From Candidatus Heimdallarchaeota archaeon (GTDB taxonomy: Archaea > Asgardarchaeota > Heimdallarchaeia > Hodarchaeales > Hodarchaeaceae), in contig CP070695.1 of the NCBI GenBank assembly GCA_020353515.1, positions 2,422,966-2,486,965 of the forward strand: a DNA stretch of 64,000 nucleotides, written 5' to 3'. Under the pieces are notes generated by a model. It made no database searches, was not told the origin of the DNA, and saw only the letters and a program-made list of their open reading frames with translations. Position numbers and translations under genes: made by a program. Below, piece after piece: positions 5,176 to 31,886 of this stretch. Position 1 is the first letter of the stretch. Each line of letters opens with the position of its first letter.

Positions 5176-8100
5176 TTATTGAATAATCGGTATTTCCTCT
5201 CGAGGGATGCTCTCTTTAGATACTAAGATATTTACTTCAGGACTACTTCCTACCCAAAGGGCTTTGTATACTACTTTTGTCTTAACCTTAAGAATCTTGA
5301 AGATGTCTAATGCTTCATTAAGAATTAAGGGTGGTAGATCTCTTAATTTGTTTTGAGCAAGAGACTTATCAAAAAGGTTTATTTGGGCTTGAGGATCTTC
5401 GATATTAACATCTAGATTAGATTTAATAATTACCAAGCGTTTAAGTGCATTTAATGATGATCTAGAAATATTCTTACTTATTGGATCCCCCCGCTTTATT
5501 CTCTGTTCAATTTCCTTTAAACGCTGACAATCTATCAGGAAGGGGGAAAGAAGAGTTAATGGGAAATGCTGTTTAAACACTTTTTGTGCAATAGGGCCTA
5601 CAAAGCTTTCTTCCACAACCCCCAATTCAGGTAGAGATATCTTTTCTTCAAGACCTCTTGCAATAGCGATAAATGTGGACTTAATGTATTCTGGGGGTTT
5701 CTCTTTCAAAAAGAGGAAAATTCTAAATGAAGGGGAAGAAATAATCTGGATTTGAACCTTATTCTTCTCAATAACGCTTGTTTTAATATTATCCTTTGTT
5801 TGATTATCAAATAAATCGGAGTCTGTTTCAATGAAGTAATTGACGATATCTGATTGAAATGATTCTAAAAAGGTATCGATCCCAACGGAAAGACCGCTTA
5901 ATACATCCTGTATCGCATTGCTTGATTGATACATAATATTGCTGACGCTATAGACAGGGAGGCCTACAGCTGTGGTCGCTAGGATCACATAAGTGTTCAA
6001 TATGGAATCTAACTTCTGTTGAAATTCACTGATATCAAATAACTTCTGTTTTTTACGTTTTTGATAGGTAGTTGAAACTAGATAAAACAGAGATACAACT
6101 AATACCGTAACCACAACTGTTAAAATGATAGCTTCTATAAGAAAGTCAAACAAGGAAGGAGGAGGTAGGAGGAAAGTGTAATCCTTACTGATTGAATTCT
6201 TCGAGTGATAAACTGAATCATACACCTCGATGAACCATTTAAAAGTAACTGTTCTGGTAAAAGACAACTCAGTTATATGATAGGTTTGATTAAAAGTCAT
6301 TAGAACTCTATTAATGTGTAAATCTGACCCAAATCCGCCTGTATTTTCTGGAGAAGTGAATTCATAGTTCAGGTACACTTCAGAGACTCCTGAACCCCAA
6401 TCTGAAACATTAACCCAAAAAAGTACTGTTGTTCTGTTAATCTCTTCAATTCCAGCCAAATGGATTATTGGTTCCCACCAATCAAACATCTGACTTGAAT
6501 TAGTGTATATACTTGCCTCATAATAACCCTCAAGGACTCCATAATCAATTATTCGCATATAATAAGAGAAATTATGCATATATTCAATAGGTAACATAAA
6601 TGTATAATGAATCTCGTTAGATATCATCCTCGTTTCAATTAAAATCCATTTGTCAAGGGTATTATCTATCACTGATAGTGTTACATTATGCGAGTTGAAT
6701 GGATCATGAATCTTACACCAGAATAAGATTTCTCCGATATTTGATACTGATGCATTTATTCCATAGTTCACCATTCTTGCGGGTTGAAAGTCGGATGTCT
6801 TCTGATTAATCTCTCCTATGCTTAGGTTATTGAATGCCTTATCATATAACAAAATGTTGTAATTAAAGGATTGATTACAATCCATGGTAATTGAATGTAT
6901 ATAATGTGTTCCATTATAATGCATTTTTGCAGTTTTTGTACCTAGATTTTTTCCATTAGGGCAATTTATTGTTAGATTGACTCCATCAATAGAACCAAAA
7001 GGGTCAGAAGCTTCAGCCCAAAAAATAAGATGACTCTGATATTGATTCAGAGTTGTGTTTCTATAACCAAAATTATTACAAATTGGATCTGTTTTATCAT
7101 ATATCACTACTTCTTGTGGTGTCGTATAATCATAATTTTCACTCTTATCAAAGGCAGTAATATAATAATAGAATGCAATTCCAGGTTCAAAACCATGGAT
7201 TGAGTAAGTATAAAAATTCCCAGAATGATTCCACTGCATAGTTTCAGTTTGATGGTGTATATGAGTATAATCCAAGAGTACAGATGAATTATCATCAAAT
7301 AATCCACTACCATCGTCTATTACTTCAGCCCAGATTGTAACAGTCCCATTCTGAAACACAATTGCATCTGTTCCTTTAATTTTAGGAGGAGCATGATCAG
7401 AAGTTGTTATAATTTTAATAATGTCTCCCAGATTCCCTGCGTTGTCATTTACCCAGACTTTAATTTCCACTTCTTCTCCAAATGGAAATTCATAAGATGT
7501 TTTATAACGATAAAAAGTATCGTATTCCATTTCTATTGTTATATTGTTCCCTGAATACGCAAAATTAATGTAGAATGAATTGTTTACATAATGAGTATCC
7601 CCAAATGGATCGATTGCGTACGCAAAGACGGTGATCTCGCCATCTTTCTCTGTAGAGCTTTCAATTGAATATATAATCTCTGGAAGAACTGTATCAGACA
7701 ACGTAAAGTTCGAGGCTTGATTAATTCCAGGATTAAACCAATTCTGTGTTGTATCAACTGTGGATACATAATACCAAAGATTCTGTAAATTGTATTCAAG
7801 TGAATAAACACGAACAAAATATGTAATATCAGATACTTGATACATTGAGAGATTAGTCCATGAACCAAAATAATTCTGTGTATACAATAAATATGCAGAG
7901 GTATCATTAAAAGGCCAATCAGTAATTTCAGCAAAGAAGTCTACTGTACCATTTCCCCAGTCTGTTTTCCAATAAGAAGCGATTGGTACTGAATTATCAT
8001 GTATAATGAACGGTCCCCGTGTTTCAGATGAATTCGGGTTGTTAGCATAATCTGATACAGTAATCCAATAATAAATAATATCATTGTATTCAAACTCAAA

Positions 8101-11100
8101 ATTATAATAATAATGGTCTTCTGATTCAATCATAACGAAGGAATGGGTTTCACCATTTATATTAACATGTAATTGCACACTACTCTCATTTATGCCGCTT
8201 TGATAATGATTTTGATCTTCAACAGATACGTAAATCTCTACATGACCATGATAATGAGTAATAAAATTGTCTATGATATCACCTTCATTAATTGGGGGTG
8301 ATTCATGGTCTTCAGGTATAATTGTGTGAAAAGAAGGAGTTAAGGATAATTTTGACCCATTTTCATTACCCAGGCTATCGACAGCAGAATAAATTGAAAA
8401 ATTCAACAGCTCACCATAATATGCTTCGATATAGCACACCCAAAACCCAGAAGCGTTTTGATGCATATCTACAAAAGAATCATTTATCTGCAAGACAACA
8501 GGATCCATAACTAAACTCATATTATCAGTAATATTTGCATAAAATTGAAGAGTTCCATTACCATAATCAATAACATCATATTCGACAATATTGGGAGGAA
8601 AACCATCACCTAAGTATAAAGAATACAGTTGTGTTACCACAGTATTGTTAGCTATATCAATTGCTATAATATTGTAGAAAATCTGGACATTTCTATGAGT
8701 CAATGTATCAAGTGCGGTTGCATTATAATATTGGTCACCATTAAATGCCTCCATTGTAAAATTTTCATGAATAAGCACTACCTCATTTGTTATATTGACA
8801 ACAGTTAAATTCAGAAGCACTTCGAATTTACTCCAATCCGAGACATCTGTAAAGAAAGTTGAGGCATTGTCAAGGAGAATAGATTCATTCATAAAATAGA
8901 CATTCTGGATTGTTGGAGGATCATTATCGATAAATTCGGAGATTCTTATATTGAGTTCAAATTTAGGATTAATTTGATAAGTCGAATTAGCTGAAAATTC
9001 AAGGAAAGAAAGTGTACTGTTAACCGAGTCTTCAAACTCAACTGTTATATTATAGTAATCATAAGGTAGATTTGTAAAAGTAGTGTATCCTGTAATTGTC
9101 GTATTTTGGGTCCAATTAATAGCTGTATTGTAAGCATTTGTAATGTTCACCCTAGCATTGGGAACAATTCTATTGTCTAAGTCTAAAACTTTAACACGCA
9201 CCGTTGCATTCTCAGGCCCTCTTTGAAGGTCCGCGATGGTAATTCCATATACATCATTATTTTCATTATCAAAATAAATTGTATAGAGTCTTTCCGATGA
9301 AATGAAATTAGTTCGTAAGGCAATCCATGCAGCTTGTACAGTGCTCACTTTTTTTTCTGATCCCCATGTGTTCCCCCCATCAGTCGAGTTTTTTATATAA
9401 ACTGTTTTATCGCTGATATAAATTGCAAATAAAGTATTATTTGAAATATCATAAGCAGGTTTTACTTCATCTCCACCTATTCCGCAATTCGTGACCACAT
9501 CAGTCTTTTGATTCCAAGAACGGTTATGATCAAAAAATATCCAAGTTTCTAAATCCCCTGTTGCATTTAGAACGTCATTATTAAGTGTAAGATAAATTGT
9601 ATGAGTATTTGGATTAATTGTTGCTCCCCAATTAGCATTATTATTATAATTATCCTCTGGAGCCTCTATTTCAGAAATGATTGTTGTTACAAAGGTTGGA
9701 GAGGCGTCCCAGGCATTCAAGTCACTGTGATACACAAAAGAATAAAGGGAGTTGGCCGTAGAGTCCTCATAAATACAAAGGACATCCCCATCACTTAAAG
9801 GAAGGAGCTGTCCATGATCATCATCATCATTAAGAAAAGAGTAGGAGGGTGTAATGTCATACCAACTTGTATTATGTTTTGCAAATTGAGGACCATTATA
9901 CATCCAAGAAGCGCCAAAAATATCTCCTTCAGTTGTAACTGTTACAGCACCTCCCCCATCAGGCGCATTGTGGGACCCACCTGAAGACATAATTACTGAC
10001 CACCCACCACCTGAAGTGTCATCTTTTGTATCAAGGTAATTATATACCATTTGATCGTTCAAGATTGAATTTACAATAATATGAATCTTAGTACCAGTAT
10101 TATTAGGTGTCCACTGATCAAACCAACAACTGAAACTGCGAAACCGATATTCAGGGGGACCACAATCAATATTCACTGGACCTTCCCAAGTAGTTCCATT
10201 ATCAATTGTTTTATAATAAACAATTTCAGCCATACCCCCATTTGTCTTTTGGAAAAAGAGATATCCGTGAGAATCGTTAATAAAAACAATACTGGGTCCT
10301 GGATTATATTCATCTGTAGCATCATATACCGCATTATCAATAATGATCTCTAATCCATCGGAGGGAACATCGTGATCTCGTTGCTCTTCAATACCAACAA
10401 CATAGAAGTTTGTAGGATCATGTTGGTTATTATACTCTGTTGTGATCCAATCCGTAGACATCACCCCATTAAAAAGGCGTAACTCATCAATTACACCAGA
10501 AAATTTCTCATCTGCAGCTTGATCAAGAGTAACACGACCAATTCGATAATCTCCAGTCGTTCCAAAGGTAGGAATACCAGTGATAGATCCAATACCCCCC
10601 TCACTGACACTATCCTTATATATAAGTCCTACACCATTCGTCCTATCGTTCGTTGCGACTATATGAATCCACGTTGTTCCAGGCCATGATCTAGTAGCAC
10701 TATCTACATATTCAAAACCCCCTCCTCCTTCCACTTTTGAATAAAGACCTCCGTCAGTGTTATGTGAATTATCAGTACCAGCGAATGTTAACGCCATATC
10801 ATAATTTCCAGTGTAAAAATGACCAAAGATAGGCATAGATTCACTAGAAGTATCGTCGAAAGTAGTATCTAATCGCACCCATGTTGAGATACTATAATTT
10901 CTTGATCCGATACCAGGATTCCATACACCTAGATTAATATAATCATCAATTCCATCGAATCTTCGGGCCCGACCAATTTTCCCCACCTCATCAATAGACC
11001 CTTGGTTTGTTCCATCTGGACTATTTAAGGAAGAACCCGTTAAATCTGTACCCAAATGCCATACTCCAACGTAATTATCACTCCAAACACCCGTGGTATT

Positions 11101-11718
11101 TTCTTGACTTCCAATGGTAGAATTCCCATAATACATTGAAATAGTGGTATTTACATCACTTGAGAGAAACGGAATCCGAATCCATGCGACAAGTAACGCA
11201 TGAGAGCCATTGAAGGCCACATTAAAATGCTCGATTTCGTGATCCAGTGTTTTGTTTAATGAGTCTATGAAGATTATATCATCCCCATCTACTTGTGTAT
11301 CATAACGAAGATCATTATCATAAAGTACAACAAGAACTGGAAAATCTCTTAAATTAGCTGCCACATTATCTGAATCAATAGTGATATTTTTACGATACTG
11401 AAAAGAAGGAGCTGCCCACCCTTCTACTTGAATATCAGCTTTCACAGGGAACGAATCAAAAGATGCTTCCTCTTTTATAAGGTCAGTACTCTCAGTCAAA
11501 TCTGAATTCACAAGGTTTAATCCTTTACTAACACTATTAGGTAAATCCTTACTGAATGTATCACTTTTAAGCTTTAATACTTTTATGGGATCATTTCTGC
11601 CATCAGATGCTTGATTGCTGAGAGAGAACGCAGTAGCGACAAATTGAATAATAAATATTACGAAAAGCAGGTATGTGAGAAATTTAAGCCTCAATTTCCA
11701 TCTTTTGCGTTCAAACAT
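5176..11718 (-). CDS. Giant single-pass surface protein: signal/anchor, DUF2341 + LamG/ConA-like domain, Asp-box (BNR) region, multiple Ig-like repeats, TM helix, cytoplasmic longin-like domain
   Basis: DUF2341 text (YRKNITID...FPVLV...DGDDIIF...LDHEIE...WIRIP.LS...TTISMYYGN); LamG (FDGIDDYI...FSGVIDELRL...WITTEYNNQ); Asp-box TIDNGTTW and STDGGNTW; repeated D..PP.I Ig-like starts; TM IILTVVVTVLVVSLFYLV followed by KRKKQK; tail of about 290 aa. Confidence 0.8.
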   Translation of the reverse strand: MFERKRWKLRLKFLTYLLFVIFIIQFVATAFSLSNQASDGRNDPIKVLKLKSDTFSKDLPNSVSKGLNLVNSDLTESTDLIKEEASFDSFPVKADIQVEGWAAPSFQYRKNITIDSDNVAANLRDFPVLVVLYDNDLRYDTQVDGDDIIFIDSLNKTLDHEIEHFNVAFNGSHALLVAWIRIPFLSSDVNTTISMYYGNSTIGSQENTTGVWSDNYVGVWHLGTDLTGSSLNSPDGTNQGSIDEVGKIGRARRFDGIDDYINLGVWNPGIGSRNYSISTWVRLDTTFDDTSSESMPIFGHFYTGNYDMALTFAGTDNSHNTDGGLYSKVEGGGGFEYVDSATRSWPGTTWIHIVATNDRTNGVGLIYKDSVSEGGIGSITGIPTFGTTGDYRIGRVTLDQAADEKFSGVIDELRLFNGVMSTDWITTEYNNQHDPTNFYVVGIEEQRDHDVPSDGLEIIIDNAVYDATDEYNPGPSIVFINDSHGYLFFQKTNGGMAEIVYYKTIDNGTTWEGPVNIDCGPPEYRFRSFSCWFDQWTPNNTGTKIHIIVNSILNDQMVYNYLDTKDDTSGGGWSVIMSSGGSHNAPDGGGAVTVTTEGDIFGASWMYNGPQFAKHNTSWYDITPSYSFLNDDDDHGQLLPLSDGDVLCIYEDSTANSLYSFVYHSDLNAWDASPTFVTTIISEIEAPEDNYNNNANWGATINPNTHTIYLTLNNDVLNATGDLETWIFFDHNRSWNQKTDVVTNCGIGGDEVKPAYDISNNTLFAIYISDKTVYIKNSTDGGNTWGSEKKVSTVQAAWIALRTNFISSERLYTIYFDNENNDVYGITIADLQRGPENATVRVKVLDLDNRIVPNARVNITNAYNTAINWTQNTTITGYTTFTNLPYDYYNITVEFEDSVNSTLSFLEFSANSTYQINPKFELNIRISEFIDNDPPTIQNVYFMNESILLDNASTFFTDVSDWSKFEVLLNLTVVNITNEVVLIHENFTMEAFNGDQYYNATALDTLTHRNVQIFYNIIAIDIANNTVVTQLYSLYLGDGFPPNIVEYDVIDYGNGTLQFYANITDNMSLVMDPVVLQINDSFVDMHQNASGFWVCYIEAYYGELLNFSIYSAVDSLGNENGSKLSLTPSFHTIIPEDHESPPINEGDIIDNFITHYHGHVEIYVSVEDQNHYQSGINESSVQLHVNINGETHSFVMIESEDHYYYNFEFEYNDIIYYWITVSDYANNPNSSETRGPFIIHDNSVPIASYWKTDWGNGTVDFFAEITDWPFNDTSAYLLYTQNYFGSWTNLSMYQVSDITYFVRVYSLEYNLQNLWYYVSTVDTTQNWFNPGINQASNFTLSDTVLPEIIYSIESSTEKDGEITVFAYAIDPFGDTHYVNNSFYINFAYSGNNITIEMEYDTFYRYKTSYEFPFGEEVEIKVWVNDNAGNLGDIIKIITTSDHAPPKIKGTDAIVFQNGTVTIWAEVIDDGSGLFDDNSSVLLDYTHIHHQTETMQWNHSGNFYTYSIHGFEPGIAFYYYITAFDKSENYDYTTPQEVVIYDKTDPICNNFGYRNTTLNQYQSHLIFWAEASDPFGSIDGVNLTINCPNGKNLGTKTAKMHYNGTHYIHSITMDCNQSFNYNILLYDKAFNNLSIGEINQKTSDFQPARMVNYGINASVSNIGEILFWCKIHDPFNSHNVTLSVIDNTLDKWILIETRMISNEIHYTFMLPIEYMHNFSYYMRIIDYGVLEGYYEASIYTNSSQMFDWWEPIIHLAGIEEINRTTVLFWVNVSDWGSGVSEVYLNYEFTSPENTGGFGSDLHINRVLMTFNQTYHITELSFTRTVTFKWFIEVYDSVYHSKNSISKDYTFLLPPPSLFDFLIEAIILTVVVTVLVVSLFYLVSTTYQKRKKQKLFDISEFQQKLDSILNTYVILATTAVGLPVYSVSNIMYQSSNAIQDVLSGLSVGIDTFLESFQSDIVNYFIETDSDLFDNQTKDNIKTSVIEKNKVQIQIISSPSFRIFLFLKEKPPEYIKSTFIAIARGLEEKISLPELGVVEESFVGPIAQKVFKQHFPLTLLSPFLIDCQRLKEIEQRIKRGDPISKNISRSSLNALKRLVIIKSNLDVNIEDPQAQINLFDKSLAQNKLRDLPPLILNEALDIFKILKVKTKVVYKALWVGSSPEVNILVSKESIPREEIPIIQ

Positions 11719-12008: not shown

Positions 12009-12569
12009 TTATTGATATAATTTTGTAATTATCATTTCCCCAAGTGCAGAAAAAGCATAATCAACATTTGTTCCATCTTTAGCAGAAGTAGAGTAATATT
12101 CGATCTGTGAGTCTATGTTTGAGTATTTATTGACTAAATTATTGTCAATATGATCCCTCACAGTGTTAAAAGAAATTTTGATCTCATCAATCAAATCCAT
12201 TTTATTCCCTAAAACAATTATTGAGGCACTAGGTAATTCAATATTTTTTGAAAATTCTTTAAGCCACCTTTCCATGTTTTCCAGAGATCTTGGCCTAGTA
12301 AGATCAAAAACTATAAATGCTCCCGCTGATCCTTTGTAATACAATCTTCGTACTTGATCGAAAGCTGGTTGACCAGCTAAATCCCAGATTTGAAACCGAA
12401 TATCTTTCGGACCATATTCTGTATCTAAAGAAACTTGTTTAGATTGAAAATCTGAACCTAAAGTTGGAGTATATTCTAATGGAAACCCTTTTCCAAGATA
12501 CCTGTTGATTAGAGAGGTTTTACCCACCTCACCATCGCCCAGTATGCAGATTTTCGCAAGTAAAGTCAA
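12009..12569 (-). CDS. Rab-like small GTPase
   Basis: G1 GDGEVGKTS, G2 PTLG, G3 WDLAGQ, G4 NKMD, G5 SAK; Rab-like RRLYYKGSAGAFIVFDLT; no C-terminal Cys; TTG start. Confidence 0.95.
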   Translation of the reverse strand: MTLLAKICILGDGEVGKTSLINRYLGKGFPLEYTPTLGSDFQSKQVSLDTEYGPKDIRFQIWDLAGQPAFDQVRRLYYKGSAGAFIVFDLTRPRSLENMERWLKEFSKNIELPSASIIVLGNKMDLIDEIKISFNTVRDHIDNNLVNKYSNIDSQIEYYSTSAKDGTNVDYAFSALGEMIITKLYQ

Positions 12570-12728: not shown

Positions 12729-13304
12729 TTACAAATCTCCCTTGGAGGAGTAATGTAGTTCAATTATTCTCCTCCCAAGTAGAGAAAAAGCTTTGTCTAC
12801 GTTTTCCCCAGTCTTTGCAGAGGTTTGGTAATATTCAATATGAGGATCTACGTTTGAGAATTTATCCACCAAATGATTATTTATATAACATTCAATAGTG
12901 TCGGGAAAAACCTTAACTTCATCAGTTAAATCCAATTTGTTCCCTAAAAGGAATATGGATGATTTTTCCGTTTGTATATTCTTCGAAAATTCATCTAGCC
13001 ACTTGTCCAAGTTTTCTAAAGAATCAGAGTAGGTTAAATCGAACACCAGGAATGCACCTGCAGATCCTTTATAGTACAACTTCCGAACTTGATCGAAGGC
13101 TGGTTGACCAGCTAAATCCCAGATTTGAAACTGAAGATCTTTACGACCTAATTTCGTGTCCAAAGTAACCTGTTTACTTAGAAAATCGGATCCTATTGTG
13201 GGTATATATTCTGTCGTAAAACCTCTTTTGAGATAGCTACTCATTAGCGATGTCTTTCCTACCTCCCCATCACCAAGTAGGCAGATCTTCGCAAGTAGAG
13301 GCAA
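12729..13304 (-). CDS. Rab-like small GTPase (tandem paralogue)
   Basis: GDGEVGKTS, PTIGSDF, WDLAGQ, NKLD, SAKTG; shares long identical blocks with 12009..12569; no prenylation motif. Confidence 0.95.
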   Translation of the reverse strand: MPLLAKICLLGDGEVGKTSLMSSYLKRGFTTEYIPTIGSDFLSKQVTLDTKLGRKDLQFQIWDLAGQPAFDQVRKLYYKGSAGAFLVFDLTYSDSLENLDKWLDEFSKNIQTEKSSIFLLGNKLDLTDEVKVFPDTIECYINNHLVDKFSNVDPHIEYYQTSAKTGENVDKAFSLLGRRIIELHYSSKGDL

Positions 13305-21338: not shown

Positions 21339-23057
21339 ATGATTTCACCAAATTCTGAAAAAGACCATTTAGGAAAAGACTTCATTCGTAAAATGATTTC
21401 GGAAGATGTGAAAAATAATAAAAACAATGGCCGAGTCCATACCCGTTTTCCTCCTGAACCAAATGGCTGGCTCCATATAGGCCATGCAAAATCAATTCAT
21501 CTCAATTTCACTATCGCAGAAGAATTCAATGGATTATGTAATTTACGGTTTGATGATACTGATCCGGCAAAAGAAAGTATGGAATACGTTGAAGCCATAA
21601 AAAAAGATGTTCAATGGCTTGGGTTCGATTGGGAGGATAGACTCTATTTTGCTTCAGATTATTTTGAACAGTTATATCAATTTGCTATAGAACTGATTAA
21701 AGCTGGTAAAGCGTATATCTGTGATTTGAGTGTTTCCGAAATTAAAGAACAAAGAGGAACCTCTGAAGAACCAGGGATTGAAAGTCCGTATCGGAACCGA
21801 TCAGTAGAGGAAAATATTGATTTATTCGAGAGGATGCGTAAAGGAGAGTTTGAAGACGGTTCCCGAGTGTTACGGGCTAAGATTGATATGACTTCTCCTA
21901 ATATGCTAATGCGTGATCCAATTATGTACCGAATCAAGAGAGAAGCACATTATAGAACTGGAAACGATTGGGTAATTTATCCCAGTTATGATTATACTCA
22001 CGGTCAGTCTGATGCAATCGAAGGAATCACACATTCACTCTGTTCTTTGGAATTCGAAACTCATAGACCTCTTTATAATTGGTATAGAGATCAATTGTTA
22101 ACTTTAAACTTACTTAAATTCTGCCCAGAGCAGACTGAATTTTCACGATTGAACTTGACATATACTGTTATGAGCAAACGACGCTTATTAGAATTGGTTG
22201 AAGGTGGACATGTTTCTGGTTGGGATGATCCCCGTATGCCAACTCTTGCTGGTTTACGAAGACGTGGACTGCCCCCTGAAGCTATTAGGCGTTTCTTAGC
22301 AAAAGTAGGCATTTCTAAAAGGGAGAACTATATTGATGTGGGTCTCTTAGAATCCTGTATTCGTGAGGAATTGGATGAAACGTGTAAACGTGTGATGGCT
22401 GTATTACGGCCTTTAAAGGTTATCATCCTGAATTATCCTGAAGGTGTTGTTGAAGAGTTAGAGGCATCCAATCATCCTAAAGATTCAAGTATGGGCTCGC
22501 GAAAAATTCCATTTTCACGGATACTGTATATAGAGCGTGATGATTTTCTTGAAGATCCACCTAAAAAGTTCTATCGATTAGCTCCTGGAAGAGAAGTCCG
22601 ATTACGATATGCCTATTTCATCAAATGTGTTGATGTTATCAAAGACGGAATAAATGGCGAGATTAAAGAAGTACATGTGACTTATGATCCAGAGACTAAA
22701 GGAGGATTTGCTCCAGATGGACGTAAAGTGAAAGCTACTCTCCACTGGGTTTCAGCGAACCATGCAATTCCTGCAGAAGCACGTTTATATGATCGGCTTT
22801 TTATTAAGGAAAATCCAATGGACGATGCTAACTTCATTAAAAATCTAAATACTGATTCATTAGAGAAGCTAACCTGTTTTGTGGAATCAAGTCTTGTGAG
22901 TGCGGCTCCAGGAATGAGATACCAATTTGAACGATTAGGATATTTCTGCGTGGATTCAGTTGACTCCTCAGGTAAACGACTGGTCTTCAATCGAACAATA
23001 ACTTTACGCGATACTTGGTCTAAGCTCAAACAATCCCAAAAAAGGATGAAAAAATAA
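21339..23057 (+). CDS. glnS: Glutamine--tRNA ligase (GlnRS)
   Basis: [91 protein letters not shown]; overall pattern typical of GlnRS. Confidence 0.9.
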
Positions 23058-23116
23058 TTTATCCTTTTATCACAAAAATCTAGTAATTTTACGTCCTTTT
23101 CATGTTAAAAGGGTGA

Positions 23117-23188
23117 CAGCCCCGCCCAGAATCGAACTGGGGTTATAGGATTCAGAGTCCTAAGTGATAACCGCTACACCACGGGGCT
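23117..23188 (-). tRNA. tRNA-Gln(CUG)
   Basis: Minus strand: AGCCCCG acceptor stem, anticodon arm TAGGA-CTCTGAA-TCCTA, T arm CCCAG-TTCGATT-CTGGG, 3' CGGGGCT-G; no intron, CCA not encoded. Confidence 0.95.
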
Positions 23189-23233
23189 CATCATGCGAAT
23201 CATCATATTTAAGTCAAGTATAGAAGAAAGAAA

Positions 23234-23306
23234 CAGCCCCGCCCAGATTTGAACTGGGGTCGAGAGGGTCAAAGCCTCTTATGCTAGTCCACTACACCAC
23301 GGGGCT
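23234..23306 (-). tRNA. tRNA-Gln(UUG)
   Basis: Minus strand: AGCCCCG acceptor stem, anticodon arm AGAGG-CTTTGAC-CCTCT, T arm CCCAG-TTCAAAT-CTGGG, 3' CGGGGCT-G. Confidence 0.95.
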
Positions 23307-31265: not shown

Positions 31266-31886
31266 ATGAAAACAAATCAAGTAATAAAAATAATAATTCC
31301 ATTAGTACTCTTATTGGGTGCCGCTACTGCTTTTATTGTTGCGGTTATTGGTAGCCAGCAAGTGAATACTACAGCAGAGACTCAAGAGTCAAATCAAGCT
31401 ACTAGTGCCTACATAGCTTTCCTCTATATTGAAGGTGTTGATGGTGAAGCTCAAGCACAGGATCATGAAAATTGGATTGAGGTTCTTGCTTATTCCCATA
31501 ATGTTATGACCGCGGATCCAACAGGTGCAGTCCGCACTGCAGGCTCAGTACAGCACGCTCCACTTCGGATTACCAAAATGGTAGATAAGGCCTCACCTAA
31601 ACTGTACGAAAAGTGTGTTAACGGTGAAACGATCGTTTCAGTAAAACTGGATTGCTGCACAGCCTTTGGCGAAGACTTGAAAGTGTTCTATCAAATTGAA
31701 CTGCAGAATGCAATGATCACTTCAGCTCAAGATTTTGGTATAGTAGCAGGAGAAGGAATTCCTACTGAGACTGTTTCTTTCACATATGAATCCATTAGAT
31801 GGACATATTCGGAATTTGATGCTGCAGGTCAAAAAAAGGGAGATATACAAACACCTTGGATCTCCACAGAGACCTCAGAAACCTAA
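31266..31886 (+). CDS. hcp: Hcp (type VI secretion tube protein family) with N-terminal signal/anchor helix
   Basis: FLYIEGVDGEAQAQDHENWIEVLAYSH, ITKMVDKASPKLYEKC..GETI, FYQIELQNAMITS, PTETVSFTYESIRWTY; N-term MK..IIIPLVLLLGAATAFIVAVIG; GGTGA RBS upstream. Confidence 0.88.
   Translation: MKTNQVIKIIIPLVLLLGAATAFIVAVIGSQQVNTTAETQESNQATSAYIAFLYIEGVDGEAQAQDHENWIEVLAYSHNVMTADPTGAVRTAGSVQHAPLRITKMVDKASPKLYEKCVNGETIVSVKLDCCTAFGEDLKVFYQIELQNAMITSAQDFGIVAGEGIPTETVSFTYESIRWTYSEFDAAGQKKGDIQTPWISTETSET

Follow-up and report, generated by a model that had tools for sequence, protein, structure and literature searches.

Reviews published up to 2022 hold that archaea are without glutaminyl-tRNA synthetase (GlnRS) and always make Gln-tRNA indirectly, the stated reason being that archaeal tRNA-Gln is unreadable by GlnRS (PMC9499178, PMC8762117). 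The discriminator of archaeal tRNA-Gln is A73 (PMC9499178), and the bacterial glutamine identity set consists of G73, U1-A72, G2-C71, G3-C70, G10, U34, U35, G36, A37 and U38 (PMC9976931, Table 1). GlnRS and a tRNA-dependent amidotransferase share one genome in Deinococcus, Thermus and Bdellovibrio, as they do here; the need for Asn-tRNA accounts for GatCAB there (PMC4206432, PMC1865053). Separate enzymes fitted to tRNA subsets via the acceptor stem or discriminator are known from the GluRS2 of Helicobacter pylori and the GluRS pairs of Acidithiobacillus (PMC2777447), and PMC9976931 cites Salazar 2003 for GluRS duplicates that co-evolve with tRNA-Gln subsets. A preprint of 2024 has already noted GlnRS in Hodarchaeales, if only briefly. 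We found no published description of a dedicated, glnS-linked tRNA set like the one described below.

The DNA analyzed here (the window) is a 64-kb stretch of an Asgard archaeal genome in which glnS, at positions 21339..23057 of the plus strand, encodes a bacterial-type GlnRS of 572 amino acids (P0001). ARAGORN found exactly two tRNAs in the window, both of them tRNA-Gln and both on the minus strand: tRNA-Gln(CUG) at 23117-23188 and tRNA-Gln(UUG) at 23234-23306. They converge with glnS, whose stop codon is separated from the 3′ end of tRNA-Gln(CUG) by a 59-nt spacer (23058..23116), and the arrangement reported by the first-pass annotation, a full-length GlnRS gene facing two tRNA-Gln genes, was thus confirmed. 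Spacer sequences differ among strains in public runs, with the genes themselves retained. Neither tRNA gene has an intron here, introns being present in many tRNAs of the genome and in the D-loop of the linked tRNA-Gln(UUG) of some relatives. The archaeal Rfam SSU rRNA model had no match in this genome, whose Asgard identity is based on Ras-like GTPases, the wealth of intron-bearing tRNAs and the title 'Promethearchaeota' of a public MAG that shares its GlnRS row with genus-mate G020. A preprint (10.1101/2024.07.04.601786) describes linkage to cytochrome oxidase genes in Hodarchaeales and Kariarchaeaceae; this is inapplicable to our locus, since COX1 had no match in this genome and no cox genes lie near glnS.

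Family assignment of the protein was clear. P0001 scored 715.4 bits against NCBIfam TIGR00440 (glnS; cut-off 425.8), 345.3 bits against archaeal gltX (TIGR00463), which is under the cut-off of 401.75, and 76.6 bits against the bacterial gltX model. The top NCBIfam score, 832 bits, came from a GlnRS/YqeY fusion model (NF011291) and covered only profile positions 7-566 of 769; Pfam did not find the GatB/YqeY domain PF02637 in P0001, and did find one in P0002. The Pfam domains present were PF00749 and the two β-barrel anticodon-binding domains, PF03950 and PF20974. The earlier characterization of the protein as bacterial-like and devoid of the eukaryotic N-terminal extension was also borne out, as Pfam did not find the tRNA-binding domain PF04558/PF04557 in P0001 (it was found in eukaryote-type representatives P0052, P0053, P0058, P0065, P0075 and P0111) and the closest solved structures were bacterial GlnRS (5bnz, 1qrs; E ~1e-200). 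The start of P0001 lies 13 residues ahead of the conserved core, and the upstream open frame is only 30 codons longer.

P0001 is 55% identical to E. coli GlnS and agrees with it (PDB 1GTR/1QTQ/1O0B), with 5BNZ and with TIGR00440 in domain order, length, motifs, and glutamine- and anticodon-site residues. Its class I motifs, HIGH at 46-49 and VMSKR at 277-281, align with H40-H43 and V267-R271 of E. coli. The glutamine-selecting residues of the E. coli structures (R30, D66, Y211, H215, C229, F233 and Q255) are unchanged in P0001 and in all 13 sequences of the genus, and the anticodon-site residues reading U35 and G36 (R341, R402, R410, Q517, E519 and R520) are conserved in P0001. At the acceptor end, the equivalent of E. 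coli Asp235, presumably the reader of the 3-70 pair, is Thr in 12 of the 13 genus sequences and Ser in the remaining one, and that of Leu136, which presumably opens the 1-72 pair, is Ser in P0001. Among 198 columns with a conservation of 93% or more across 79 bacterial GlnRS, the Heimdall clades deviate at four, and all four changes are conservative. Adaptation of the enzyme to archaeal tRNA was rejected on this ground, and the retuning would have taken place mostly on the tRNA side. Judged by its sequence, P0001 is an intact, genuine bacterial-type GlnRS in an archaeon, with predicted glutaminylation activity.

The two linked tRNAs (hereafter class B) had been taken for the genome's two tRNA-Gln isoacceptors, but proved to be an extra pair: the genome has four tRNA-Gln genes, namely the two beside glnS, with G73 and A37, and two canonical copies elsewhere (class A), a tRNA-Gln(UUG) at genome positions 2761946-2762018 and an intron-bearing tRNA-Gln(CUG) at 3963583-3963690, both with A73 and G37. 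The canonical archaeal combination of A1-U72 with A73 is found in the two distant copies; the class B pair has A1-U72 but G73. Class B tRNA-Gln(CUG) has A1-U72, G2-C71, C3-G70, G10, the loop C-U-CUG-A37-A38 and discriminator G73, and class B tRNA-Gln(UUG) has the same acceptor stem (5′ AGCCCCG and 3′ ...GGGGCU-G in both), the loop C-U-UUG-A37-C38 and again G73. Measured against the E. coli identity set, the pair thus possesses G73, A37, U35, G36, Y34, G10 and G2-C71, and departs from it at U1-A72 (A1-U72, still a weak pair), G3-C70 (C3-G70) and U38 (C38 or A38). Going by these sequences, 73 and 37 are the two positions at which archaeal tRNA-Gln deviates from the bacterial identity set and class B conforms to it. 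The cloverleaves are kept: across nine genomes, 6 of 20 pairs of tRNA-Gln(CUG) were changed on both sides and none was broken, with G73 and A37 invariant, and across six genomes 3 of 23 pairs of tRNA-Gln(UUG) showed compensatory changes, none was broken and G73 was invariant. The class B tRNAs are best explained as duplicates of archaeal tRNA-Gln that kept the acceptor stem and T arm and underwent changes from A73 to G73 and from G37 to A37.

This genome has intact genes for archaeal GluRS (genome positions 488765-490447) and GatDE (gatE-gatD, 1409424-1412684). Within the class, 78 of the 83 genomes have kept gatD, including all glnS-bearing members of the genus. As GluRS, gatE-gatD and the canonical tRNA-Gln genes are all kept, the direct route is an addition and not a replacement, and the proposal that the lineage had switched to direct glutaminylation does not hold. 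The situation also differs from that of Deinococcus, Thermus and Bdellovibrio, because GatDE is specific for glutamine and two routes therefore lead to one product; in addition, there are two tRNA-Gln sets here, and P0001 has no YqeY tail. Relative to E. coli, the differences are the archaeal host, the three departures of the tRNAs noted above, and GatDE in place of GatCAB. In H. pylori and Acidithiobacillus the enzymes concerned are GluRS paralogues feeding the indirect route, whereas here a foreign GlnRS would be combined with duplicated host tRNAs.

Of 400 Asgard genomes, 41 had GlnRS, and these belong without exception to three families of one class. Within the genus, each of the 12 genomes with glnS has the G73/A37 tRNA pair, which adjoins glnS in 11 of them. 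Among genus genomes without glnS, G017 alone showed these tRNAs, and its 1.7-kb contig breaks off right at them; the tRNA-Gln genes of the sister family and of the other glnS-lacking genus-mates were all A73/G37. The association of class B tRNAs with glnS is probably a single evolutionary event and not the product of many independent ones. In the other two Heimdall families (f4 and f7), GlnRS has a bacterial-type core, 61% identical to P0001, together with an N-extension of ~80 amino acids that is similar to the N-terminus of archaeal GluRS (E 1e-12; G038 enzyme) and has no counterpart in P0001. GatDE is retained in these families too, and their glnS often adjoins a tRNA-Gln(UUG) with A37 but A73, unlike class B; G73 is therefore no general requirement of these enzymes.

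Our preferred explanation, which we regard as fairly probable, is that a horizontally acquired bacterial-type GlnRS has become a long-term resident of the genus with its own retuned tRNA pair and is run beside GluRS/GatDE. A bacterial-type glnS would have entered a Hodarchaeales-type Asgard genus by horizontal transfer and stayed. Host tRNA-Gln would have been duplicated, retuned at positions 73 and 37, and carried along with glnS; an insertion of glnS next to an existing tRNA locus, as first suggested, is the less likely course. GlnRS would then charge class B tRNAs directly with glutamine, and non-discriminating GluRS with GatDE would go on serving the canonical A73/G37 copies, giving two parallel routes to Gln-tRNA in one cell. 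A stronger version, in which the two systems are insulated from each other as a natural orthogonal pair and different species capture stages of replacement (no GlnRS; both systems side by side; canonical tRNAs lost in one subclade, where the freed tRNA-Gln(CUG) gene turned to CUA), seems to us less likely than not. In G002, G005, G007 and G008 the Gln-type tRNA genes found were the class B pair and a variant with a CUA anticodon only; a two-mismatch acceptor-stem pattern run on G002, G005, G006 and G007 gave nine loci and no tRNA, the two loci of G008 being left out. As class B is the sole CAA/CAG-reading set detected in G002, G005, G007 and G008, it must decode CAA and CAG there. GatDE is kept even in these four genomes, which fits a clean partition poorly and hints that class B tRNAs, too, may be substrates of GluRS/GatDE.

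Retention of GatDE in all glnS-bearing genomes, the four just named included, also agrees with GlnRS being a redundant back-up. Under this alternative GlnRS charges all tRNA-Gln and/or non-discriminating GluRS mischarges class B, GatDE stays on as an indispensable corrector, and G73 and A37 do no more than improve kinetics or answer to a modification need such as escape from m1G37 methylation. It could likewise accommodate the A1-U72 pair, which amidotransferases use (PMC9976931) and which both tRNA classes have in common, as well as the A73 retained in the glnS-linked tRNAs of f4 and f7. On the other hand, all glnS-linked tRNAs of the genus have G73 and A37 in spite of their varying stems, no canonical copy has either nucleotide, and mutations of E. 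coli identity elements cost up to 1e5-fold in kcat (PMC9976931). We consider a back-up role unlikely, although it is the strongest of the alternatives to domestication with a retuned tRNA pair.

The origin of the enzyme was assessed by maximum-likelihood phylogeny with IQ-TREE (LG+C20 PMSF) and with FastTree as a second method. In the IQ-TREE tree the GlnRS of the genus formed a clade (support 100) within a 12-row group (SH-aLRT 98) that includes Thermodesulfobacteriota, Poribacteria, Bacillota, Chloroflexota and Acidiferrobacterales; the eukaryote-type clade was placed elsewhere, in agreement with FastTree. The sequences of f1, the family of the present genus, and those of f4+f7 formed separate clades, and under broad sampling both lay several nodes deep among bacterial rows. 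Within the genus, the glnS tree roughly mirrors that of gatD. Because the ML trees place GlnRS among bacterial sequences, horizontal acquisition is the best reading; that part of the first-pass annotation stands on the trees, while AU tests, run under LG+G4, leave alternatives, rejecting neither one common Heimdall clade (p 0.233) nor a Heimdall-plus-eukaryote side against the bacteria (p 0.189).

The latter result, together with a FastTree analysis restricted to near bacterial relatives and rooted with GluRS, in which f1, f4+f7 and the bacteria formed an unresolved three-way split, would allow an ancient vertical gene that arose in Heimdall archaea before eukaryotes, the Heimdall enzymes then being ancestral or sister to the GlnRS of bacteria and/or eukaryotes. 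It would also suit Heimdallarchaeia as the closest archaeal relatives of eukaryotes, as stated in 10.1101/2024.07.04.601786. We judge such a history improbable given the depth of both clades among the bacteria, the greater identity of f1 GlnRS to bacteria (61.2%) than to f4/f7 (57.1%), and the patchy presence of the gene, which was found in 3 of ~33 sampled Asgard families and is lacking in the sister family within the order. Eukaryotic GlnRS (human 4YE6, yeast 4H3S) has the same catalytic core and β-barrel anticodon domains, and P0001 is ~44% identical to eukaryote-type representatives; it falls in a separate clade, is without their N-terminal domain and is no closer to them than bacterial GlnRS, the mean identities being 44.3 and 43.4% for the two Heimdall clades vs. 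45.2% for bacteria. We accordingly saw no sign of the position near the GlnRS root, or of the eukaryotic affinity, that had been raised earlier.

We consider a role outside general translation, either as a regulator or in charging one particular tRNA (the CUA variant, for example), very improbable. In this genome the direct route does appear redundant beside that of GatDE, relatives do carry the Gln-type CUA-anticodon tRNA, and E. coli GlnRS accepts amber suppressor tRNAs (PMC9976931); against this, the codons of the linked tRNAs are the ordinary CAG and CAA, for which four relatives yielded no other tRNAs, and the conserved GlnRS sites show no relaxation. Reassignment of UAG in the relatives with a CUA tRNA was rejected, as 27 of the 89 long ORFs of G002 terminate with TAG and treating this codon as sense brought little gain in coding density. 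Finally, we give next to no credence to a bacterial contaminant or chimeric contig, for which one could adduce the MAG-like scaffold (113 N runs, 112 of exactly 100 N), an estimated contamination of 7.4% and 62-67% identity of P0001 to bacterial GlnRS, since the window lies inside an N-free 219-kb stretch, glnS has the G+C of its surroundings, tRNAs with archaeal A1-U72 lie 59 nt off and two Ras-family GTPase genes 8 kb upstream, the genus GlnRS forms a clade of its own, an independently assembled contig from a sediment run bridges the 3′ end of glnS and the tRNA pair, and the glnS-tRNA-tRNA order recurs in 10 further genus genomes and in the public 'Promethearchaeota' MAG with the GlnRS row of G020.

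If the two Gln-tRNA systems are indeed insulated from each other, positions 73 and 37 would be the barrier that excluded GlnRS from archaea, and it would have been crossed by retuning a duplicated tRNA and not the enzyme. Tumbula et al. (2000) reportedly proposed such a barrier, made up of the tRNA discriminator and position 37. A GlnRS accompanied by tRNA copies altered at exactly these positions makes the archaeal 'lack' of the enzyme testable. The locus also cautions against regarding the GlnRS of Heimdallarchaeia as ancestral to that of eukaryotes. Taken as a whole, the locus offers a natural case of the domestication of a foreign synthetase, and it may be a source of orthogonal synthetase/tRNA pairs.

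The glnS open reading frame (ORF; 572 codons, 21339-23057, + strand) converges on tRNA-Gln(CUG) (23117-23188) and tRNA-Gln(UUG) (23234-23306). Both were called on the - strand by tRNA search and are the only tRNA genes in the window; 59 nt separate the glnS stop codon from the nearer one, as the first-pass annotation had accurately described. The predicted product, P0001, scored 715.4 bits on the NCBIfam glnS model (cut-off 425.8) and fell below the cut-offs of both the archaeal and the bacterial NCBIfam GluRS models, and Pfam identified three GlxRS-family domains and nothing extra. Its nearest solved structures were bacterial GlnRS (5bnz and E. coli entries, E ~1e-200), ahead of the human (~1e-140) and yeast (~1e-120) enzymes. 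When P0001 was aligned with E. coli GlnS (from NC_000913) and 114 other sequences, the HIGH and VMSKR motifs were found to be kept, as were the glutamine pocket (E. coli R30, D66, Y211, H215, C229, F233, and Q255) and the anticodon-reading residues (R341, R402, R410, Q517, E519, and R520). Two positions do differ: Thr and Ser replace Asp235 and Leu136 of E. coli GlnS, of which the former reads base pair 3-70 and the latter opens 1-72. In 79 bacterial GlnRS, 198 columns reach 93% conservation or more; the archaeal GlnRS clades depart from them at only four, each conservatively. The enzyme is under full purifying selection and is neither a decaying import nor a GluRS. The window's GlnRS is an ordinary-looking, bacterial-type member of a known family in an unusual host.

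The genome is a single 4.94-Mb record with 113 runs of N (112 exactly 100 long) and is therefore a scaffold of many pieces. The first 51 runs occur at steadily shrinking spacing, as if size-sorted small contigs had been joined, and a search of the genome for archaeal SSU rRNA gave no match. The window sits in an N-free stretch of ~219 kb and its G+C is flat throughout. Two tandem Ras/Rab-like small GTPase genes, an Asgard marker here, lie 8 kb upstream of glnS (12009-12569 and 12729-13304, both - strand); the pair is downstream of a 2180-aa ORF (5176-11718). A homolog of Hcp, the type VI secretion tube protein (PF05638), occurs in archaeal context at 31266-31886 (+). Both glnS-linked tRNAs have an archaeal A1-U72 acceptor stem, and introns occur in over half of all tRNAs in the genome. 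The best non-self GlnRS match (86% identity) came from a public MAG titled Promethearchaeota, whose GlnRS row matches genus-mate G020's exactly. The order glnS, tRNA-Gln(CUG), tRNA-Gln(UUG) is repeated in 10 further genomes of the genus and in this MAG, and an independent assembly of a public sediment run yielded contigs that tile the region, including one bridging the glnS 3′ end and both tRNAs. The first-pass annotation had allowed for a chimeric or bacterial contig; taken as a whole, these observations exclude contamination or chimerism of the locus for practical purposes.

A whole-genome scan found four tRNA-Gln genes. The annotation had placed both tRNA-Gln isoacceptors at glnS; the CUG and UUG genes there are an extra pair, and two further genes lie elsewhere: a canonical tRNA-Gln(UUG) (genome 2761946-2762018) and an intron-bearing canonical tRNA-Gln(CUG) (genome 3963583-3963690, - strand), both with A73/G37 (class A). 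The glnS-linked pair (class B) has the 3′ end ...GGGGCU-G, with discriminator G73, and A37. A73 is found in archaeal tRNA-Gln and G73 in bacterial tRNA-Gln (PMC9499178), and the validated identity set of E. coli GlnRS consists of G73, U1-A72, G2-C71, G3-C70, G10, U34, U35, G36, A37, and U38 (PMC9976931, Table 1). Class B differs from this set at 1-72 (A-U, also a weak pair), 3-70 (C-G), and 38. Its acceptor stem and T arm are the same as in the canonical copies, it is about 79% identical to the canonical UUG copy by a position-by-position count by hand, and its sequences were unlike E. coli tRNA-Gln when aligned. Class B tRNAs are therefore archaeal tRNA-Gln molecules with two acquired bacterial GlnRS determinants, G73 and A37, that class A is without. 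Their stems covary with no pair broken (6/20 compensatory for CUG in nine genomes; 3/23 for UUG in six), and G73 and A37 are invariant in the same genome sets, implying that they are functional.

The genome's own canonical tRNA-Gln(CUG) (L128; G000:C1:3963583-3963690, -) has C32 and C33 (GAGGG-CC-CUG-G), whereas U33 is present in its relatives. It is unusual for a tRNA to lack U33; the gene may be decaying after becoming redundant, or the assembly may be wrong at this point. The window's tRNA-Gln(UUG) is intron-less; glnS-linked tRNA-Gln(UUG) genes of four genus-mates carry a 30-35-nt D-loop insertion (G007, L110; G011, L104; G018, L105; G017, L109), and that of G016 (L092) has an insertion near the variable loop/T arm, all at non-canonical intron positions.

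The annotation had inferred direct glutaminylation and proposed a search for gatD, gatE, and a separate gltX. All three were found: an archaeal GluRS, which passes the TIGR00463 cut-off with 478.5 bits, and adjacent, intact gatE and gatD. A switch of route does not hold, since the indirect pathway is still encoded; GlnRS is an addition to it, not a replacement. gatD is present in all glnS-bearing genomes of the genus and in 78/83 genomes of the class. In f7, another Heimdall family (G080-G090), nearly all genomes have a second full-length gatD, and each copy scores above the family cut-off. In the gatD tree (loci L229-L248) the genus is split in two clades separated by a very long branch, of 1.22 changes per site. 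G016 has gatD of both kinds (G016:C2:91108-92328 and G016:C9:7734-8951), one of which shares a contig with glnS, ~20 kb away; this MAG, with 9% contamination, may mix two species.

Class B was found in 12/12 glnS-bearing genomes of the genus and adjoins glnS in 11, the pair lying away from glnS in the scaffolded record G009. Among ten genomes in which glnS was not detected, class B occurred only in G017, where a 1.7-kb contig breaks off at the tRNAs; the glnS of this genome is therefore probably just unassembled. Class A was found with and without glnS and is the sole class in the sister family. The class B-glnS association is perfect, probably through one origin and hence not many independent events. 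A search for the Gln acceptor stem (exact and with two mismatches) found only three genes each in G002, G005, G007, and G008 (84-93% complete): two of class B plus a single class-A-like one. Of 11 weaker matches in the five genomes searched, nine were scanned and none was a tRNA. The class-A-like gene has the anticodon loop UUCUAU ahead of an intron. This form is kept in six genus-mates (L156, G002; L152, G005; L141, G006; L142, G007; L155, G008; L144/L119, G012) while the introns diverge, and canonical 37/38 splicing would yield a tRNA with anticodon CUA, U37, and a Gln-type acceptor (A1-U72, A73). Genome-wide reassignment of UAG in these relatives was rejected, as TAG ends 27/89 long ORFs in G002 (contigs L181-L190); stop usage is markedly uneven in the genus, with TAG closing 4/44 long ORFs in the window.

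In G002, G005, G007, and G008, class B tRNAs thus appear to be the sole decoders of CAA/CAG. GatDE is kept in these genomes too, which argues against a perfectly clean partition, so that action of GluRS/GatDE on class B as well is kept as a rival, though less likely, reading. Of the indirect arguments for a working GlnRS/class B system, this apparent sole-decoder role is the strongest.

GlnRS scored above the cut-off in 41/400 sampled Asgard genomes, all from the class to which the window belongs and confined to three families: that of the window's genus (f1; the window's genome and 11/21 others), f4 (21/31), and f7 (8/12). Some 30 other families, among them the sister family within this order, had none above the cut-off. 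In the trees, GlnRS of f4/f7 group in a clade of their own, apart from f1. That of G038 (f4) has an ~80-residue N-terminal extension similar to the beginning of archaeal GluRS (E 1e-12 when compared with the GluRS of the window's genome), and other f4/f7 glnS frames are similarly long (about 620-690 aa), whereas P0001 is without a GluRS-like extension. The f4/f7 glnS often adjoins a tRNA-Gln(UUG) with A37 but A73. A37 thus goes with both archaeal groups of GlnRS, whereas G73 is confined to the window's genus. Two f4 genomes have, beside glnS, tRNA-Gln-like genes whose anticodon loops are odd: one called tRNA(UUA) by ARAGORN, with an A1-A72 mismatch (G036, L161:2229-2302), and one with a 6-nt anticodon loop containing UUA (G041, L168:1168-1242).

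With bacterial sampling limited to the 79 closest sequences and a single GluRS as outgroup, FastTree left f1, f4+f7, and bacteria as an unresolved trichotomy. A wider tree added representatives of 50%-identity clusters obtained by searching the whole library; among them are eukaryote-type sequences, recognized by the PF04558 N-terminal domain, and a Plasmodium entry. With FastTree and IQ-TREE (LG+C20+F+G4 PMSF), the genus clade (100) fell within a 12-row group (SH-aLRT 98) with Thermodesulfobacteriota, Poribacteria, Acidiferrobacterales, Bacillota, and Chloroflexota, and the f4+f7 clade (100) elsewhere, sister to a Planctomycetota row (93). The eukaryote-type clade (100) was remote from both. 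Mean identities fit this picture: 61.2% (f1-bacteria), 57.1% (f1-f4/f7), 44.3% (f1-eukaryote-type), and 45.2% (bacteria-eukaryote-type). On a weak backbone, the simplest reading of these trees would be transfer from bacteria, possibly twice, in line with the horizontal acquisition first proposed; the near-root position also raised there, with its bearing on the eukaryotic enzyme, finds no support in the trees or the mean identities. On this weakly supported backbone, AU tests (LG+G4) did not reject one common Heimdall clade (p 0.233), nor did they reject a split with Heimdall and eukaryotes together on one side and bacteria on the other (p 0.189), so ancient vertical descent of GlnRS in the Heimdall lineage keeps some slight probability, but the nesting of the Heimdall clades in bacterial rows makes it very improbable. 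Long residence in the genus is indicated by a glnS tree that broadly parallels the gatD tree, with glnS bearers in both deep gatD clades, and by host-like G+C.

The preprint 10.1101/2024.07.04.601786 states in one clause that GlnRS neighbors coxABC in Hodarchaeales and Kariarchaeaceae; the existence of GlnRS in the lineage is therefore already on record, its significance not being discussed there. COX1 had no match anywhere in the window's own genome, and our literature search found no paper tying GlnRS to Heimdall or Hodarchaeales tRNAs. We infer the activity of GlnRS, the partition of tRNAs between the routes, and the direction of transfer. A GlnRS coupled to a dedicated, retuned, host-derived tRNA pair beside the classic archaeal route is a new arrangement. 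The absence of GlnRS from archaea has been put down to differences in tRNA-Gln (PMC9499178, citing Tumbula et al., 2000), and the arrangement makes this 25-year-old explanation directly testable.
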